In this document: in pieces, positions 1 to 6,466 of the stretch
Layout: each line of letters begins with the position of its first letter
Position numbering within the stretch: the first letter of the stretch is position 1
Source: a virus
Lineage: Duplodnaviria > Heunggongvirae > Uroviricota > Caudoviricetes
Direction: 5' to 3' (one strand)
DNA: 6,466 nt
Virus record (IMG/VR): IMGVR_UViG_2606217106_000014
Coordinates: 1-6,466 of that record
Notes under the pieces: generated by a model
Databases searched by the model: none
The model's input: the letters and a program-made list of their open reading frames with translations, nothing else
What the model was told of the DNA's origin: nothing
Position numbers and translations under genes: made by a program

Positions 1-328
1 CACAAGCAACTGATAATGCCCCCGGAGCAGGAGCATCTGTAGCACAGCGCGGGGTGTCGATAAGTTCCACTGGAACCAGAGTCGGAGAGGCCGGAAAAGA
101 TTGTGATACTGTAGGGCCTACAATAGTTGGAGGCATTCTACGAGAAATACGTCCTTCTCTTTGCCAGAGGCGTAGCCATTTAAAAATCAGGTTGTTATCA
201 ACGCCATGTTCCCGGGCCAGTTGTGCAACATTGGCATTTGGTTTCGAAGCCAGTTCAACCATATGAAGTTTAAATTCATTAGAAAATATCCGGCGGGTTC
301 CGGAGCGCCAGTCTGTAGGTTTATCCAT
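1..328 (-). CDS. IS transposase OrfA-like helix-turn-helix protein, N-terminal part (gene continues past window start)
   Basis: Not in the ORF track because it has no stop in the window. Reverse-strand translation from ATG (complement of 326-328) gives MDKPTDWRSGTRRIFSNEFKLHMVELASKPNANVAQLAREHGVDNNLIFKWLRLWQREGR..., open to position 1. The pattern FSxEFK...VAQLAREHGV..NLIFKWLR is typical of IS OrfA HTH domains. GGAG lies 8 nt upstream on the minus strand. Confidence 0.6.
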   Translation of the reverse strand, partial: MDKPTDWRSGTRRIFSNEFKLHMVELASKPNANVAQLAREHGVDNNLIFKWLRLWQREGRISRRMPPTIVGPTVSQSFPASPTLVPVELIDTPRCATDAPAPGALSVAC

Positions 329-341
329 CAATAGAACTCCG

Positions 342-368
342 TCTAATTTAGAAGGAGCTCTAATTTAG
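342..368. repeat. Two exact 10-bp direct repeats TCTAATTTAG (342-351 and 359-368) separated by 7 bp
   Basis: Read directly from the sequence. They lie between the OrfA start and the putative IS terminus, so they may be subterminal transposase-binding repeats. Confidence 0.5.
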
Positions 369-473
369 TCTGCAAGGAGCAGGTGTTACAGACGGCATTG
401 GCTTTACGCTTACCTTACTCTGAACGCCCACCGCGTCCGTCCCGCACATTCCAGCAACGCATCTGGAGGTAAC

Positions 474-1520
474 GTGCGGGTATTACTTCGACCTGTTCTG
501 GTACCGGAACTCGGGCTGGTGATCGTTAAGCCGGGCCGTGAATCCATGCCGGTATTCCACAATACCCGGGTACTGGTGGAGCCGGAACCGAAAAGCATGC
601 GTAATCTGCCGTCCGGGGTCGTTCCTGCCGTTCGCCAGCCGCTGGCGGAGGATAAATCATTACTGCCATTTTTCAGCGACGAACGAGTGATTCGTGCTGC
701 TGGTGGCGCTGGCGCATTGTCTGACTGGTTACTGCGCCATGTTAAATCCTGCCAGTGGCCACACGGCGATTATCACCACAGTGAAACCGTCATTCACCGT
801 TATGGTACCGGCGCAATGGTGTTGTGCTGGCACTGCGACAACCAGCTGCGCGACCAGACCTCCGAATCACTCGGGCAACTTGCTCACCAAAACCTGTCTG
901 CATGGATGATTGACGTCATACGCCATGCAATGAATGGCTCGCAGGAACGGGAATTATCGCTGGCTGAATTATCCTGGTGGGCGGTCCGCAATCAGGTGGC
1001 GGACGCGCTACCGGAAGCGGTATTACGTCGTTCGCTGGGGTTGCGTGCGGAAAAAATCCGCTCAATGTACCGTGAAAGCGACATCGTACCGGGAGAGCAG
1101 ACCGCCACCAGCATACTGAAGCAGCGCACAAAAAATCTTGCGCCGCTGCCTCACGCCCACCAGCAAACCCCGCCACAGGAAAAGACGGTGGTCAGCATTG
1201 CTGTTGATCCGGAGTCTCCGGAATCTTTAATGAAGCGACCTAAACGTCGCCGTTGGGTAAATGAGAAATATACGCGCTGGGTAAAGACACAGCCGTGTGC
1301 GTGTTGTGGTAAGCCAGCCGACGATCCCCATCACCTGATTGGTCATGGTCAGGGCGGAATAGGGACAAAAGCCCACGATATTTTCACGCTACCGTTGTGT
1401 CGGGAGCATCACAACGAACTTCATGCTGATCCGCTGGCATTTGAAGAAAAGCATGGTTCCCAGATTGATTTAATTTTTCGTTTTCTTGATCGCGCCTTTG
1501 CAACCGGCGTGCTCGGGTAA
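474..1520 (+). CDS. DUF968-family prophage protein (YdfU-like) with C-terminal Cys/His HNH-like motif
   Basis: 348-aa ORF with GTG start preceded by GGAGG (465-469). C-terminus CACCGKPADDPHHLIGHGQGGIGTKAHDIFTLPLCREHHNELH has CxxC...HH...C..HH..H spacing resembling an HNH/zinc-finger nuclease fold. Position immediately upstream of rusA and Q matches lambdoid nin regions. Confidence 0.8.
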   Translation: MRVLLRPVLVPELGLVIVKPGRESMPVFHNTRVLVEPEPKSMRNLPSGVVPAVRQPLAEDKSLLPFFSDERVIRAAGGAGALSDWLLRHVKSCQWPHGDYHHSETVIHRYGTGAMVLCWHCDNQLRDQTSESLGQLAHQNLSAWMIDVIRHAMNGSQERELSLAELSWWAVRNQVADALPEAVLRRSLGLRAEKIRSMYRESDIVPGEQTATSILKQRTKNLAPLPHAHQQTPPQEKTVVSIAVDPESPESLMKRPKRRRWVNEKYTRWVKTQPCACCGKPADDPHHLIGHGQGGIGTKAHDIFTLPLCREHHNELHADPLAFEEKHGSQIDLIFRFLDRAFATGVLG

Positions 1521-1532
1521 AAGAGGTTACTG

Positions 1533-1907
1533 ATGCGTATAGAGTTTGTTTTGCCTTACCCGCCGACGGTGAACACCTACTGGCGTCGTCGTGGCAGCAC
1601 ATATTTTGTATCAAAAGCCGGTGAGCGTTATCGCCGGGATGTGGCACTTATTGTCCGCCAGCAGCGGCTGAAATTAAACCTGTCCGGAAGGCTGGCAATA
1701 AAAATTACTGCAGAGCCACCGGATAAGCGCCGTCGTGACCTGGACAATATTCTGAAAGCACCACTGGATGCACTGACGCATGCGGGGCTTCTCATAGACG
1801 ACGAGCAGTTTGATGAAATCAATATTGTGCGCGGTCAGGTCGTTCCCGGTGGGCGGTTGGGCGTGAAAATTTACGAAATAATGCATGACGGGCAGGTCAA
1901 AAAATGA
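1533..1907 (+). CDS. rusA: RusA-family Holliday junction resolvase (crossover junction endodeoxyribonuclease)
   Basis: 124-aa ORF with RBS AAGAGG (1521-1526). PPDKRRRDLDNILKAPLDALTHAGLLIDDEQ matches the RusA catalytic core of E. coli RusA ([30 protein letters not shown]), as recalled. Confidence 0.9.
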   Translation: MRIEFVLPYPPTVNTYWRRRGSTYFVSKAGERYRRDVALIVRQQRLKLNLSGRLAIKITAEPPDKRRRDLDNILKAPLDALTHAGLLIDDEQFDEINIVRGQVVPGGRLGVKIYEIMHDGQVKK

Positions 1908-2725
1908 AGCTGGAAGATTTACCGAAATACTATTCCCCGAAATCGCCTGGCCTGACCGATGCGTCCGCCTCGACATCAAAAGATGCGCTGAGTATCACTG
2001 ATGTGATGGCCGCGCAGGGCATGACACAAAATCGGGCTGAGATGGGTTTTTCTGCGTTCCTTAGGAAAATGGGCATTAGTATGAATGACAGAGAGCGGGC
2101 AACAGAATTGCTGACAGAATATGCACTCAGTCGGTGTGATCGCGTGGCGGCGTTAAGAAAACTCCCGGCAGAAATAAAACCGGTAGTGATGCGCATTATG
2201 GCTTCGTACGCTTTTGAGGATTATGCCCGCAGCGCAGCGAGTAAAAAGCAGTGCCCTTGTTGCTATGGGGAAAAATTTATTGAAAGCGTAGTTTTTACAA
2301 ACAAGGTCCAGTATCCGGATGGTAAGCCGCCGGTATGGGCAAAGTGTACGAAAGGTGTGTATCCGTCTTACTGGGAAGAATGGAAAAAAGTCAGGGAGGT
2401 GGTAAAAGTTGCCTGTCCGGAGTGTGGCGGAAAGGGTGAGGTTTCCACCGCCTGTAAGGATTGCCGTGGGCGTGGTGTCGCCATTCATCGTGAAGAGTCG
2501 GTAAAACGTGGTATGCCTGTTATCAGAGACTGCCAGCGTTGTGGTGGTCGTGGCTGTGAAAGACTACCATCAACGGAGGCATTTAATGCCATATGCAAAG
2601 TGACGAGTGCTATCACGCTTGATACGTGGAAAAAATCAGTGAAACGCTTTTACGATACGTTGGTGGTTCGGTTTGACATTGAAGAGGCATGGGCGGAGCG
2701 GCAGTTAAAGAGGGTAACGCGATAG
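1904..2725 (+). CDS. Q: Lambda-family late antiterminator Q with expanded CxxC zinc-binding region
   Basis: 273 aa. N-terminus (YYSPKSPGLTDASASTSKDALSITDVMAAQGM) and C-terminus (TWKKSVKRFYDTLVV...RVTR) align by eye with lambda Q. Four CxxC motifs, three of them CxxCxGxG (CPECGGKG, CKDCRGRG, CQRCGGRG). ATG overlaps the rusA stop (ATGA at 1904-1907). Confidence 0.85.
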   Translation: MKLEDLPKYYSPKSPGLTDASASTSKDALSITDVMAAQGMTQNRAEMGFSAFLRKMGISMNDRERATELLTEYALSRCDRVAALRKLPAEIKPVVMRIMASYAFEDYARSAASKKQCPCCYGEKFIESVVFTNKVQYPDGKPPVWAKCTKGVYPSYWEEWKKVREVVKVACPECGGKGEVSTACKDCRGRGVAIHREESVKRGMPVIRDCQRCGGRGCERLPSTEAFNAICKVTSAITLDTWKKSVKRFYDTLVVRFDIEEAWAERQLKRVTR

Positions 2726-2730
2726 TGTTG

Positions 2731-2775
2731 TTGATTTTTCCCGAATCTGTGGTAAATTTGCTCTAACGATGGGCG
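2731..2775 (+). promoter_or_regulatory. pR'-like late promoter with qut (Q-utilisation) site
   Basis: TTGATT (2731-2736), 16-bp spacer, extended -10 TGgTAAATT (2750-2758), then TGCTCTAACGATGGG. This closely resembles lambda pR' (TAAATTTGACTCAACGATGGG), including the AACGAT pause-inducing element (2765-2770). Sits directly downstream of Q. Confidence 0.7.
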
Positions 2776-2806
2776 TTTTATGCCTGACGTTATAAGATTT
2801 TTTACA

Positions 2807-2831
2807 CCCCGCCGCCTGGCGGGTTTTTTTA
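2807..2831 (+). terminator. tR'-like intrinsic terminator
   Basis: Stem CCCGCC (2808-2813) / GGCGGG (2818-2823), loop GCCT, then T7 (2824-2830). Predicts a short pR' transcript of about 65 nt. Confidence 0.75.
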
Positions 2832-2952
2832 TGACTGAAATCGCGTCAGTACAGTAAACGCGCTGGTGGCGGTGAATACCTGTCTTTCAGCTTGCTGGCT
2901 TTTTCGACAAGAGTTATTGGTGTGTCACGTTAACCGGAAAAGGGAAAAAGAC

Positions 2953-3150
2953 ATGCTAAAACAGCAGGATATGACAGAAACCGCCAGAGTAGTGTTTAAT
3001 GAATTAAGCGTTACCGAACCGGCGACAGTCGGGGAGATTGCACAGAATACTTACCTTTCACGCGAACGCTGCCAGTTAATACTGACCCAGCTGGTTATGG
3101 CGGGTCTGGCAGACTATCAGTTCGGTTGTTACAGACGCCTTCCGCAGTGA
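2953..3150 (+). CDS. Small hypothetical protein (65 aa), possible winged-helix DNA-binding protein
   Basis: ATG at 2953 preceded by AAAAGGGAAAAAGAC. Translation MLKQQDMTETARVVFNELSVTEPATVGEIAQNTYLSRERCQLILTQLVMAGLADYQ has an HTH-like segment (TVGEIAQNTYLSRERCQLIL). The track's upstream start at 2866 has no RBS. Function unknown. Confidence 0.45.
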   Translation: MLKQQDMTETARVVFNELSVTEPATVGEIAQNTYLSRERCQLILTQLVMAGLADYQFGCYRRLPQ

Positions 3151-3160
3151 AGGCTTTTTT
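3137..3160 (+). terminator. Intrinsic terminator overlapping the stop codon of the small ORF
   Basis: Stem GCCTTC (3137-3142) / GAAGGC (3149-3154), loop CGCAGT, then T6 (3155-3160) and ATTT. Confidence 0.65.
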
Positions 3161-3177
3161 ATTTGTGGTAAATGGGC

Positions 3178-3208
3178 GGCTGGTGGGTGTTAGGGGCACC
3201 CACCAGCC
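3178..3208. promoter_or_regulatory. Perfect 12-bp inverted repeat GGCTGGTGGGTG-N7-CACCCACCAGCC upstream of the methyltransferase
   Basis: Read directly. No T-run follows, so it is not a canonical terminator; could be an operator or RNA processing/stability element. It is preceded by TGTGGTAAAT (3164-3173), which duplicates the pR' -10 region (2748-2757). Confidence 0.4.
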
Positions 3209-3300
3209 ATCTGCTCATGCGTTGGGTTCACAAGCAAACCTCAGGCCCACTGCTTTGCGCAAAAGCAGAATGAGCCTATCAGAGACAGGCTTAATGATCC

Positions 3301-4350
3301 ATGCTTAATACTGTAAAAATATCCAGTTGTGAGTTAATCAACGCCGACTGCCTGGAATTTATCCGGTCGTTACCCGAAAATTCTGTTGACCTGATAGTCA
3401 CGGACCCGCCGTACTTTAAAGTGAAGCCTGAGGGCTGGGATAACCAGTGGAAGGGCGACGATGATTACCTGAAGTGGCTGGACCAGTGTCTGGCGCAGTT
3501 CTGGCGGGTGCTGAAACCTGCCGGAAGTCTTTACCTGTTCTGTGGTCATCGCCTGGCATCTGATATCGAAATCATGATGCGTGAACGCTTCAGTGTGCTG
3601 AACCATATTATCTGGGCGAAGCCGTCCGGACGCTGGAACGGATGCAACAAGGAAAGCCTGCGGGCGTATTTCCCCGCCACAGAGCGCATTCTGTTCGCGG
3701 AACATTATCAGGGGCCGTATCGTCCGAAAGATGCCGGGTATGCGGCGAAGGGCAGTGCACTGAAACAGCATGTGATGGCCCCGCTGATTTCTTACTTTCG
3801 TGATGCGCGCGCGGCCCTGGGGATAACGGCAAAACAGATTGCAGATGCCACAGGAAAGAAAAACATGGTGTCGCACTGGTTCAGTGCCAGTCAGTGGCAG
3901 TTGCCGAACGAAAGCGATTATCTGAAATTACAGGCGCTGTTTGCCCGGGTGGCAGAAGAGAAACATCAGCGCGGTGAACTGGAAAAGCCCCACCACCAGC
4001 TGGTGGATACGTATACGTCACTGAACCGGCAGTATGTGGAGCTGCAGAGTGAATATAAGCATCTGCGGCGGTATTTTGGTGTGACGGCGCAGGTGCCGTA
4101 CACGGATGTGTGGACACATAAACCGGTGCAGTTCTATCCCGGGAAACATCCGTGCGAAAAACCGGCAGAAATGCTGCAGCAGATAATCAGCGCAAGCAGT
4201 CGTCCGGGTGACCTGGTTGCAGATTTTTTTATGGGCTCAGGTTCAACGGTAAAGGCGGCTATGGCGCTTGGGCGTCGTGCAATTGGTGTTGAGCTGGAGA
4301 CCGGACGTTTTGAGCAGACAGTCAGGGAAGTTCAGGATTTAATCGTTTGA
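3301..4350 (+). CDS. Orphan DNA N6-adenine methyltransferase, beta class (N6_N4_Mtase type)
   Basis: 349 aa. Motif IV DPPY near the N-terminus (LIVTDPPYF) and motif I FxGxGS near the C-terminus (DFFMGSGSTVKAAMALGRRAIGVE), i.e. the permuted IV->TRD->I order of beta-class amino-MTases. No restriction endonuclease partner in the window. Confidence 0.9.
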   Translation: MLNTVKISSCELINADCLEFIRSLPENSVDLIVTDPPYFKVKPEGWDNQWKGDDDYLKWLDQCLAQFWRVLKPAGSLYLFCGHRLASDIEIMMRERFSVLNHIIWAKPSGRWNGCNKESLRAYFPATERILFAEHYQGPYRPKDAGYAAKGSALKQHVMAPLISYFRDARAALGITAKQIADATGKKNMVSHWFSASQWQLPNESDYLKLQALFARVAEEKHQRGELEKPHHQLVDTYTSLNRQYVELQSEYKHLRRYFGVTAQVPYTDVWTHKPVQFYPGKHPCEKPAEMLQQIISASSRPGDLVADFFMGSGSTVKAAMALGRRAIGVELETGRFEQTVREVQDLIV

Positions 4351-4399
4351 AACGGATGAGATTGCAGAATTAATTACGCACCATTATTATTCTGCTCCC

Positions 4400-4475
4400 G
4401 GCCCTTTAGCTCAGTGGTGAGAGCGAGCGACTCATAATCGCCAGGTCGCTGGTTCAAATCCAGCAAGGGCCACCA
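4400..4475 (+). tRNA. tRNA-Ile2 (anticodon CAU, ileX/ileZ-like; automated tools may call it Met)
   Basis: 76-nt cloverleaf: acceptor GGCCCTT/AAGGGCC, D-arm GCTC...GAGC, anticodon loop CTCATAA, T-arm GCTGG-TTCAAAT-CCAGC, discriminator A, encoded CCA. Near-identical in layout to E. coli ileX as recalled. Confidence 0.85.
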
Positions 4476-4482
4476 TCACATA

Positions 4483-4559
4483 CCGCCATTAGCTCATCAG
4501 GAAAGAGCGCCAGCCTTCGAAGCTGGTTGCGCGGAGTTCGGGTCCCCGAAGGCGGTCCA
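4483..4559 (+). tRNA. tRNA-Arg-like, apparent anticodon UCG, with non-canonical features
   Basis: D-arm GCTC...GAGC, anticodon stem CCAGC/GCTGG with loop CTTCGAA, T-loop TTCGGGT, 3' CCA. Acceptor CCGCCAT/AAGGCGG has one mismatch and starts with C; the T-stem has one mismatch. Boundaries +/- 2 nt. Confidence 0.6.
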
Positions 4560-4572
4560 TTATCTGTATCCT

Positions 4573-4649
4573 GCGTTGTTAGCTCAGCCGGACAGAGCAA
4601 TTGCCTTCTAAGCAATCGGTCACTGGTTCGAATACAGTAGAACGCGCCA
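4573..4649 (+). tRNA. tRNA-Arg (anticodon UCU)
   Basis: Acceptor GCGTTGT/AGAACGC (one mismatch), D-arm GCTC...GAGC, anticodon stem ATTGC/GCAAT with loop CTTCTAA, T-loop TTCGAAT, discriminator G, encoded CCA. Confidence 0.8.
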
Positions 4650-4664
4650 CACTTATTTTCCCTG

Positions 4665-4688
4665 GCTCGCTTTTGCGGGCTTTTTTTT
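4665..4688 (+). terminator. Intrinsic terminator downstream of the tRNA cluster
   Basis: Stem GCTCGC (4665-4670) / GCGGGC (4675-4680) with one G-U pair, loop TTTT, then T8 (4681-4688). Confidence 0.6.
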
Positions 4689-4900
4689 AAATGTCTCATA
4701 ATTCAGGCGGTTGACTGTTGTCTGGTTTGCGGGGAGTTTGTTAAAAGAAACTGGCATGGTGAATCCCCCTGTGCGGAGGGGCAATCAGCAACTGGTGTTT
4801 TGTCACCGACCCTTATCCTTTCTGTGCGGGTTCAGGTGCTGATACTGAACTCACCGGGAGGCACCCGGCACCATGCAATGGCACATAGCGCCACTCTCCA

Positions 4901-4925
4901 GCCCCTCTCCGGAGGGGCTTTCTTA
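4901..4925 (+). terminator. GC-rich hairpin with weak U-tract (terminator-like or RNA structural element)
   Basis: Perfect 8-bp stem AGCCCCTC (4901-4908) / GAGGGGCT (4913-4920), tetraloop TCCG, then TTCTT. Confidence 0.35.
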
Positions 4926-4930
4926 TGGAC

Positions 4931-4958
4931 AAAAAAATCCCGCGCTGGGAGACGCGGG
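4931..4958 (-). terminator. Minus-strand intrinsic terminator
   Basis: On the minus strand: stem CCCGCG (4958-4953) / CGCGGG (4944-4939), 8-nt loop, then A and T7 (4937-4931). Confidence 0.45.
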
Positions 4959-5152
4959 CGGCAAGGAATAAACAACAAAACGTGAAGTAATATTTCAGTT
5001 GGCGAATAATATCCGACAGTAATCACTCTGCGCAATAGCGCGGCCTTTTTCGTATTGCGGGCTGTTGTCTATCTTCTGCCATTGTCCTGTAACTTCCGGA
5101 CTTCAGCCCGCTCCTCATTTTACTCACAATATTATCCAGGCCGGGAGGATTC

Positions 5153-6466
5153 ATGGCATTTAAACACTATGACGTGGTCAGGGCGGCGTCGCCGTCAGAC
5201 CTTGCGGAGCGACTGACACAAAAACTGAAGGAAGGCTGGCAGCCGTTTGGCAGTCCTGTGGCTATCACGCCTTATACACTGATGCAGGCCATTGCCGCAG
5301 AGGGTGATGTGACCACGCCTGTGGTTGTGCCCGACACAGGGGCTGGTGGCTCTCCGGGAGTGGCTACCACTGAACCGGAGTATTACTACGTTATTCCCCA
5401 GGCCGGGCAGTCGAACGGTATGGCCTATGGTGAGGGGCTTCCTCTGCCGGAGACCTATGATCGCCCTGACTCCCGTATTAAGCAGCTGGCCCGTCGCAGC
5501 ACTGTGACGCCGGGTGGTGATACCTGTGCATACAATGACGTTATTCCGGCAGACCACTGTCTGCATGATGTTCAGGACATGAGCGCACTTAACCATCCTC
5601 ATGCAGACCTGAGTAAGGGCCAGTACGGGACTGTCGGTCAGGGGCTGCATATTGCCAAAAAACTGCTGCCTTATATCCCGCAGAATGCCGGGATTCTTCT
5701 GGTGCCCTGTTGCCGTGGCGGGTCTGGTTTAACCGTGGGTAATGACGGCACGTTCAGCGAAACGTCTGGCGCATCGGCAAATTCAGCCCGCTGGGGAGTG
5801 GGTAAACCGCTGTATCAGGATTTTCTCTTCCGTACAAAAGCGGCGCTGTCGAAGAACCCGAAAAACAGGCTTCTGGCCGTGGTATGGATGCAGGGGGAAA
5901 ATGATCTTGCGGACGGCAGTCAGCAGCACAGCGGCCTGTTTACCACTATGGTGCAGCAGTTCAGGGCTGATATGGCTGCATATTCTGCACAGTGTGTTGG
6001 CGGAAGTGCTGGCTCGGTGCCGTGGATTTGTGGTGACACCACGTATTACTGGAAGAATCTTAACGCCGATAAATATGAGGCGGTATATGGCGGTTACAAG
6101 GGCAGGGAAGCACAGAATATTTTCTTTGTTCCTTTTATGACGGATGAGAATGGACAGAGCACGCCAACGAATGCTCCGGCGGAAGACCCGGATATTGTGG
6201 CTGTCGGGTATTACGGTGCAGCATCCCGAACCCAGGGCAGTTTTGTTTCGACACAGCGTGACAGCCATTTCAGCTCATGGGCACGCAGGGGCGTCATTTC
6301 AGACCGTCTGGCCTCAGCTATTATGCTCCATGCAGGGCGCACGGCTGAATTGATGCGCGGGCAGACCGTGACACCACCGGATGAGAAGCCGTCACCTGAT
6401 ACACCATCAAAACCGTCCACGCCACCCGCAGACACCACGACGATGAGTACGCTATTTGCTTACCGG
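5153..6466 (+). CDS. nanS-p: NanS-p-type prophage sialate O-acetylesterase (DUF1737 N-domain + SASA/SGNH esterase domain), 5' partial - runs off window end
   Basis: Not in the ORF track because there is no stop in the window; 438 codons open from ATG 5153 (RBS GGGAGGA) to 6466. Translation MAFKHYDVVRAASPSDLAERLTQKLKEGWQPFGSPVAITPYTLMQAIAAEG... then YYYVIPQAGQSNGMAYGEG (GQSN catalytic-serine block), and a Pro/Thr-rich linker TPPDEKPSPDTPSKPSTPPADTTT near the window end. Confidence 0.85.
   Translation, partial: MAFKHYDVVRAASPSDLAERLTQKLKEGWQPFGSPVAITPYTLMQAIAAEGDVTTPVVVPDTGAGGSPGVATTEPEYYYVIPQAGQSNGMAYGEGLPLPETYDRPDSRIKQLARRSTVTPGGDTCAYNDVIPADHCLHDVQDMSALNHPHADLSKGQYGTVGQGLHIAKKLLPYIPQNAGILLVPCCRGGSGLTVGNDGTFSETSGASANSARWGVGKPLYQDFLFRTKAALSKNPKNRLLAVVWMQGENDLADGSQQHSGLFTTMVQQFRADMAAYSAQCVGGSAGSVPWICGDTTYYWKNLNADKYEAVYGGYKGREAQNIFFVPFMTDENGQSTPTNAPAEDPDIVAVGYYGAASRTQGSFVSTQRDSHFSSWARRGVISDRLASAIMLHAGRTAELMRGQTVTPPDEKPSPDTPSKPSTPPADTTTMSTLFAYR

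Follow-up and report, generated by a model that had tools for sequence, protein, structure and literature searches.

The window analysed here (the whole stretch of 6,466 nucleotides (nt), positions 1 to 6,466 of the IMG/VR record IMGVR_UViG_2606217106_000014) is the late-control region of a lambdoid prophage. We focused on a small open reading frame (ORF) on the + strand at 2953-3150 (ATG at 2953, TGA at 3148-3150), which encodes a stand-alone protein of 65 amino acids (aa) predicted to be a winged helix. The ORF lies between the gene of the antiterminator Q (1904-2725, + strand) and that of a beta-class N6-adenine DNA methyltransferase of the M.EcoGII type (3301-4350, + strand); it is flanked by two intrinsic terminators, and a structured RNA leader separates the second of these from the methylase. 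Our overall explanation, to which we give a probability of roughly one half, is that this insulated winged-helix unit is a dedicated accessory regulator of the methylase cassette. We are nearly certain that the ORF is a real gene, and we consider it probable that it is functionally tied to the methylase; that the small protein controls the methylase is what we infer from synteny.

The small protein and its linkage to one methylase family

The small ORF has the signature of a translated gene under purifying selection. Among the 77 distinct sequences collected, the median ratio of nonsynonymous to synonymous substitution rates (dN/dS) against the window copy was 0.08 (44 pairs). The start codon, a Shine-Dalgarno (SD)-like site and the length (63-67 aa) are conserved in the homologues, and insertions and deletions comprise whole codons, so that the conservation of the reading frame, which the initial annotation had named as a check on its proposal, was found. 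The database homologues (n = 334) are mostly 63-65 aa long and are labelled 'TrmB family transcriptional regulator' or 'hypothetical' by the annotation pipeline PGAP, which also annotates the same genes, including the 198-nt coding sequence, on an E. coli chromosome with a 99.8% identical stretch. The family is narrow, with 61 representatives in 1.84 billion proteins. The product matches PHROG 331, a phage family of unassigned function, with E = 1.4e-37 (residues 1-64 aligned to positions 35-98 of the 111-position profile).

An AlphaFold2 model made with a 17-sequence alignment predicts a winged helix with high confidence (predicted local distance difference test, pLDDT, 93.4; predicted template modelling score, pTM, 0.81), with helices at residues 9-16, 26-33 and 37-49 and a beta-hairpin, the wing, at 53-62. 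We regard the winged-helix fold as settled at the level of structure prediction. A helix-turn-helix (HTH)-like segment had been noted from the sequence and structure prediction had been proposed as a check; the model and sub-threshold Pfam winged-helix matches agree with the segment. Neither Pfam nor NCBIfam has a model that reaches its own cut-off for the small ORF, homology searches by sequence against solved structures gave no match (best E = 0.63), and the defence-system models gave only a chance-level match. The structural neighbours returned by Foldseek were RPA32C, ScpB and the N-terminal winged-helix dimerisation domains of S-adenosylmethionine (SAM) O-methyltransferases, with weak E-values (1.6e-3 or worse) that reflect the generic winged-helix fold.

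Membership in two known regulator families was considered and rejected. The match to the TrmB family (PF01978) scored 18.0 bits against a cut-off of 25.6 (E = 0.0026) and covered residues 13-55 only; the protein stops at residue 65, and full-length TrmB members carry a sugar-sensing C-terminal domain. For the MarR family, the MarR_2 model gave 14.7 bits against a cut-off of 27; MarR proteins are about 140 aa long and have dimerisation helices on either side of the winged helix, at both termini, and the small protein has just 65 aa. Unlike TrmB, MarR and ArsR regulators, the small-ORF protein has no dimerisation or sensor domain, and the 'TrmB family' label denotes its fold, not its function.

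Every intact homologue examined, at 42-100% identity, lies directly upstream of one methylase family. The amino acid identities were 100% in phiP27, 94% in SfV (orf47), 82% in a Klebsiella phage, 50-53% in mEp460, cdtI and Shiga toxin (Stx) 2c phages, and 48% in Morganella and Providencia phages; the most divergent member (42%, in Proteus-like genomes) likewise has Q on one side and the methylase on the other. In the phiP27, SfV, mEp460, Klebsiella, Morganella and Providencia phages, Q is followed by the small ORF, a gap of about 140-150 nt and the methylase, under differing Q genes and other upstream neighbours; the downstream genes also differ between the mosaic genomes that carry the pair. 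The same block is present in related Stx phages. In IMG/VR, 73 of the 74 loci with an identical ORF and enough downstream sequence have both the leader and the methylase; the exception carries an insertion.

The leader is missing or disrupted in some relatives. In the Proteus-like lineage (L297-L300, e.g. L299 2400-2780), tR', the upstream block, the winged-helix ORF and the terminator are retained and the structured leader is lost; the methylase there has an ordinary SD sequence (AAAGGA), and a clear terminator separates it from the ORF. In phiSTEC1575-Stx2k (L295 2853-3695) the leader is disrupted, and the gene after the small ORF is annotated only as a 237-aa 'helix-turn-helix domain-containing protein', which may be an N-terminally truncated methylase.

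The identification of the flanking genes as Q and a methylase, already made by the initial annotation, was confirmed by domain matches. Q (273 aa; PF03589, E = 1.6e-50; the Q-like PHROG 127 and 25523) is the supplier of terminator-resistant polymerase and is a context gene only. The methylase (349 aa; PF01555, E = 1.8e-44) has DPPY at residues 35-38 and FMGSGS near its C-terminus, and was the only feature detected by PADLOC in the window. It shares 96% aa identity with the enzyme of phage 1720a-02, which is named as very similar to M.EcoGII in the available passages of PMC5778455. The same passages describe M.EcoGII as a non-specific adenine methylase of 349 aa that is deleterious when constitutive, is unexpressed in the lysogen and is active alone in vitro; the window gene resembles it in its length of 349 aa and in its prophage setting. 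We place the window enzyme in the M.EcoGII type via the 1720a-02 enzyme, and its probable non-specificity is taken from those passages of PMC5778455. Neither the small ORF nor the leader is mentioned in them, and the word 'upstream' does not occur in the text available from that source. An enzyme of this toxic, non-specific type provides a rationale for heavy insulation; it was, together with the structured RNA spacer, a point missed by the initial annotation. Among the annotated phages examined (lambdoid, N15-like and VHML-like), the methylase immediately precedes the lysis genes (holin or endolysin), and in Stx phages the tRNAs and stx lie between methylase and lysis genes.

Terminators, promoter-like sequences and the RNA leader

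The GC-rich hairpin followed directly by a U-tract that defines an intrinsic terminator was found at 2808-2823 and at 3137-3154, and these are the two terminators, tR' and one overlapping the stop codon, between which the ORF had been placed at the outset. The tR' terminator (2808-2830, + strand) has a stem of six G-C pairs (2808-2813/2818-2823, CCCGCC/GGCGGG), a loop of 4 and a run of seven T. The second terminator (3137-3164, + strand) has the stem 3137-3142/3149-3154 (GCCTTC/GAAGGC), a loop of 6 and the T-tract TTTTTTATTT at 3155-3164 (T6AT3); it overlaps the last four codons and the stop of the small ORF, with the TGA at 3148-3150 spanning the loop and the 3' arm. The region 2600-3400 contained 4 terminator-like sites, compared to 0.8 +/- 0.9 in shuffled sequences. 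A GC-rich hairpin with a T-run occupies the tR' position in 23/23 aligned relatives, with differing stem sequences, and marks the point where homology between the mosaic phages begins. Across 74 near-identical loci the second terminator persists with G-U variants. Except in Morganellaceae, the position immediately 5' of the leader is occupied by a hairpin whose T-tract varies in length; this hairpin covers the ORF stop where the ORF is present, and in loci lacking the ORF its place is taken by tR', which is joined directly to the leader. The recurring order is terminator, promoter-like block, winged-helix gene, terminator, the leader where there is one, and methylase.

Just 3' of Q, the sequence TTGATT-N16-TAAATT-tgctct-AACGATggg (2731-2773) contains a putative lambda-like late promoter pR' (2731-2770, + strand; -35 TTGATT at 2731-2736, -10 TAAATT at 2753-2758) with an AACGAT pause-like element at 2765-2770. 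We take this sequence to resemble lambda pR' (TAAATT...AACGATGGG) and its pause element, and the likeness in a position after Q makes it reasonable to assign 2808-2830 as tR'. The putative pR' was not scored as a promoter in the consensus scan, with 8/12 positions matching. In Stx phages, pR' is constitutive and its transcription is stopped at tR' (PMC7547250). Through a 13-nt direct repeat of the E. coli clade only (2745-2757 and 3161-3173; ATCTGTGGTAAAT and ATTTGTGGTAAAT), the pR' -10 region recurs at the leader's 5' edge, immediately past the second terminator. We considered this copy as part of a sigma-70 promoter within the leader and rejected it, since it is confined to the E. coli clade and has no -7 T.

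A conserved non-coding block precedes the small ORF (2890-2928, + strand). It consists of CTTGCTG, about 13 variable nt and then (C)A(A/G)AGTTAT.TG.(A/G)TGT, the 3' part of which can also be written CAGAGTTAT.TG.ATGT. Read as a promoter, the block offers a -35 element TTGCTG (2892-2897), a 17-nt spacer and a -10 element TATTGG (2915-2920) about 33 nt before the ATG. The sequences and their invariant spacing are shared by the E. coli, Morganella, Providencia and Proteus lineages, and the block accompanies the small ORF. We consider it a candidate for a promoter, weak or regulated, or for an operator. In the clade of the window copy, a 10-nt complement between 2896-2905 and 2944-2953 could mask the ribosome binding site of the small ORF. 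A different long-range helix masking the ORF start, pairing CUUGCUG (2891-2897) with CAGCA(A/G)G in codons 4-6, is not claimed: compensation is possible in one or two cases (L138, L161), and many mismatches are uncompensated.

The 136 nt between the ORF terminator and the methylase ATG (3165-3300, + strand) form an RNA leader that is better conserved than the small ORF itself. Its structure was set manually, together with a covariance model, R1. A single-stranded GUGGUAAA (3165-3172) is followed by five helices: P0 (3173-3177 with 3245-3249) closes a three-way junction with P1 (3178-3189 with 3197-3208) and P2 (about 3210-3219 with 3229-3238), and P3 (3250-3256 with 3262-3268) and P4 (3271-3277 with 3287-3293) come next. 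The methylase AUG lies 7 nt past P4, preceded by AUGAUCC and lacking an SD sequence.

The comparative evidence strongly supports this fold. In a MAFFT alignment of 55 non-redundant leaders, 84.3% of the cells were paired, compared to 31-42% with slid partners, and double changes occurred at 14 pairs versus 6-8 in the controls; none of 500 shuffles reached the observed values. When 82 sequences were realigned with R1, an alignment that is fitted to that model, 86.8% of the cells were paired (31-45% in controls), with compensatory changes at 30 of the 39 pairs (10-14 in controls) and a covariation score of 0.187 versus 0.04-0.09. RNAalifold recovered only P0 and parts of P1 from the raw MAFFT alignment, because indels misalign the interior of P1. 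The single-sequence fold had a z-score of -4.3. The G-U pairs of the leader would be A-C on the opposite strand, so the structure is one of + strand RNA. Helix variants include ATGAGC/GGCTCA (locus L136) and UGGGG/CCCCA (Gilliamella) in P0 and GACUGUAAAGGUG/CACCCUUACAGUC in P1 of Providencia; the junction strands AAAUGGGCG, CCAU and ACCAAGGCCCA are nearly invariant. In L136, a G to A change at 3175 is accompanied by C to T at 3247.

R1 also found the leader upstream of the methylases of PY54 (67 bits), Serratia OS31 (66), N15 (50), PhiR46_1 (44) and VHML (42), in Vibrio plasmids and contigs (41-49 bits) and in Gilliamella (33 bits). No Rfam 15 family matched the leader at gathering level; at E<=10 there was only a chance-level match to P26 by the P1 hairpin alone (24 versus 36 bits). 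Full-text literature searches returned no relevant text on the leader sequence or on the ORF in its Q/methylase context. To the extent covered by these searches, the leader matches no described RNA family. A reading of the leader as an upstream ORF (MGGWWVL, AUG at 3172) was rejected: its length varies between 3 and 45 aa, and the base pairs covary as the peptide sequence diverges.

Several observations concern relatives of the leader. In N15 (L289 1364-1735), the tblastn match to the methylase has its start at 1501 of the locus, just before the end of the R1 match at 1512; the annotated start of gene 52 is 234 nt further downstream than the start of the tblastn match and therefore looks too late. 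Methylases of Vibrio, Aliivibrio and Psychromonas (L192, L194-L199, L201, L202, L205, L206) have a different conserved leader about 150 nt upstream of their start, of the form ...GCCTTGAGTACCTGAGACCCA...GGAGAGGAAGCA...hairpin...ATTCAAGGCTCT, with an apparent long-range GCCTTGA/TCAAGGC pairing; it was matched by neither R1 nor Rfam. Small Cys4 zinc-ribbon ORFs abut or overlap the methylase start in L187 (2841-2966), L204 (2865-3041) and L203. These ORFs, found in Vibrio relatives only, resemble Mu Com below threshold (PF10122, E = 0.0016, 18.3 bits versus a 22.9-bit cut-off), and in L187, the Vibrio locus checked, an R1-type leader is followed by the Com-like ORF abutting the methylase.

Possible roles of the small protein

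In the arrangement that we propose, the insulated unit of promoter-like block, gene and terminator would have been inserted between tR' and the methylase leader, and the methylase would be the first gene past the small ORF downstream of pR'/tR', as far as the window shows. In the lysogen, the two serial terminators and the folded SD-less leader would keep the methylase off, and Q-modified polymerase would read through both terminators, switching it on late. The methylase is probably harmful if made in a lysogen, and with a constitutive pR' such a layered block would hold it off; a leaky constitutive pR' would reach the methylase first by read-through, which offers a rationale for the extra insulation. 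The small protein would most likely be a dedicated accessory regulator that tunes the methylase cassette.

Some findings weigh against this explanation. In about one third of the genome loci with a leader, tR' or another small gene stands in place of the ORF, and N15, PY54, VHML and Serratia OS31 have the methylase and leader but not the ORF, which makes the ORF an optional add-on; it is an optional accessory specific to the M.EcoGII-type methylase. Some genomes have other, unrelated small genes in this slot, which would be expected of a site where morons insert, and a few decayed phages retain the ORF after deletion or truncation of the methylase. With a median net charge of -1 and an isoelectric point of 5.2, the family is acidic to neutral, which is unusual for a 65-aa nucleic-acid binder and weakens the model of a simple DNA-binding repressor. 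Conservation does not extend to the basic residues of helix 3, which is largely hydrophobic; the invariant residues of the family are M1, T8, A11, L44, T45, Q46 and G51. As for the upstream block, the weak local promoter suggested by the initial annotation gained a conserved candidate in TTGCTG-N17-TATTGG, but the block fits only 6/12 promoter consensus positions and was missed by the promoter scan. It is present as a single copy in the window, and no conserved dyad or repeat was seen in it.

Of three mechanisms by which the protein might act, we rank first, albeit tentatively, its binding of nucleic acid at the block just upstream of its own gene. Such binding would set the level of the protein itself as well as the flow of transcription toward the methylase, with a timing like that of the C-proteins of restriction-modification systems. 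The likeness to C.PvuII and C.AhdI includes a small HTH-type protein upstream of a modification-related gene that is harmful if untimely, and a conserved non-coding block before the protein's own gene; an autoregulatory delay circuit is conceivable. C-proteins, which control the restriction gene, are dimers of an Xre-type (lambda-cI-like) five-helix HTH domain and recognise palindromic C-boxes. In contrast, the small ORF encodes a winged helix of three helices and a beta-hairpin with no HTH_3 or Xre Pfam match, there is no C-box-like dyad seen upstream of it, and the methylase is an orphan whose neighbourhood holds Q, three tRNAs and an esterase with no downstream endonuclease. The C-protein analogy, offered as speculation at the outset, therefore stands as control logic only; with its winged-helix fold and no restriction gene nearby, the small protein is not a member of the C-protein family.

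The mechanism that we rank second, and consider rather unlikely, is that the small protein is a partner of the methylase itself, as an antitoxin-like inhibitor, chaperone or modulator made in excess through the intervening terminator. The acidic family with its few conserved basic residues and largely hydrophobic helix 3 would suit such a role, as would a linkage to the methylase that is independent of the leader, and a small gene set before a toxic enzyme, together with a terminator that attenuates transcription, recalls the stoichiometry of a toxin-antitoxin pair. The structural neighbours RPA32C, ScpB and the winged-helix domains of SAM O-methyltransferases point in the same direction; however, their E-values are weak (1.6e-3 or worse) and the fold is generic. 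Many methylases of the family function without the small protein, and M.EcoGII is active alone in vitro according to the passages available from PMC5778455. We regard as similarly doubtful a composite view in which the ORF, the terminator and the leader form a layered fail-safe, the leader being a new class of RNA that senses the methylase, SAM or S-adenosylhomocysteine, or the winged-helix protein, and the protein serving as an anti-methylase or tuning factor. If this were true, the ORF-methylase pair would be a toxin-antitoxin-like module embedded in a lambdoid late operon.

The third-ranked mechanism, which we think unlikely, is a post-transcriptional action on the leader RNA in the manner of Mu Com, in which the protein would bind one of the leader's hairpins and so open or close the SD-less methylase start. 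The ORF ends 8-24 nt before the conserved AUGGGCG of the leader, the leader is strongly structured, with the SD-less methylase AUG 7 nt past P4, and the Vibrio relatives mentioned above have a Com-like ORF, sub-threshold in its match, between leader RNA and methylase. The locus also resembles the com-mom operon in having a late toxic adenine-modifying gene under layered control and a small ORF beside structured mRNA with a poorly accessible start. Mu Com is a Cys4 zinc ribbon that binds a hairpin of the mom mRNA; its gene overlaps mom, downstream of the promoter-proximal leader. The small protein differs in being a winged helix with no CxxC pairs, encoded upstream of the leader with a terminator between. 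Moreover, the leader is equally conserved in the absence of the ORF (N15, PY54, VHML and many genomes), the linkage of ORF and methylase persists in the leaderless lineage, the protein is acidic, and no feature of the leader tracked the presence or subtype of the ORF in a check by eye.

A further reading, which we consider improbable, is that of an ordinary moron: the ORF would have a promoter and terminator of its own, be expressed from the prophage in a role unrelated to the methylase (such as host regulation or exclusion), and owe its position only to a favoured insertion slot past tR'. The layout of promoter-like block, gene and terminator is the classic one, and the unrelated small genes in the slot and the survival of the ORF after methylase deletion fit this view. 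The arrangement is also akin to the pR'-tR' short transcripts (lambda 6S RNA, StxS; PMC7547250) in having a constitutive pR' ended at tR' near Q, and, like stx and other morons, it adds a gene with its own terminator to the late leader. The corresponding transcript of the window would have a length of about 65 nt, compared to 194 or 258 nt in the lambda 6S RNA and StxS systems. Unlike a typical moron, however, the small ORF is confined to a single neighbour: all intact homologues examined, down to 42% identity and in mosaic genomes, precede the one methylase family, none was seen in another context, and the family is narrow as noted above. That the frame is untranslated and conserved only for RNA or DNA signals in the late leader is hardly credible, since the unusual nucleotide-level conservation of the ORF 5' end and 5' untranslated region and the 10-nt complement at the ribosome site, which would favour it, are set against the dN/dS of 0.08, whole-codon indels, maintained length of 63-67 aa, conserved start and SD-like site and a confident globular fold.

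The control logic proposed for the locus resembles the C-protein, com-mom and moron arrangements, and the protein is neither a C-protein nor a Com homologue.

Neighbouring features and significance

Upstream of Q, the window contains a DUF968/HNH gene (474-1520) and a RusA gene (1533-1907); downstream of the methylase lie three tRNAs (4400-4649) and, from 5153, a DUF1737/SASA esterase gene. No stx gene is present in the window. Positions 4725-4930, downstream of the tRNA cluster and upstream of the esterase gene, are a full-length match to the small RNA family STnc100 (RF02076, 143 bits, E=1e-32); Stx phages have stx at this place. The tRNA at 4400-4475 was called tRNA-Met (CAT) by ARAGORN and tRNA-Ile by PGAP in the 99.8% identical record, and is named ileZ in phiP27; the disagreement probably reflects a lysidine-modified Ile2 type.

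The control region is very common. A query of window positions 2700-3320, comprising the end of Q, the ORF, the leader and the methylase start, matched 2460 of 5426 complete E. coli genomes (45%), at up to 8 places per genome and with Stx phages included; in 1739 of those 2460 genomes a single place covered at least 80% of the query. Enzymes of the M.EcoGII type methylate every accessible adenine and are widely used for chromatin footprinting. In the sources searched, we found no description of how phages silence such enzymes in lysogens or switch them on late. The locus offers a concrete, very common control region, with two serial terminators, a structured RNA and a small winged-helix protein that is probably dedicated to it. 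The cassette directly precedes the stx genes in some related Stx phages, such as phiP27, and read-through control may therefore bear on toxin expression. All of the parts are short and testable with reporters, so that the taming of a non-specific methylase becomes directly testable.

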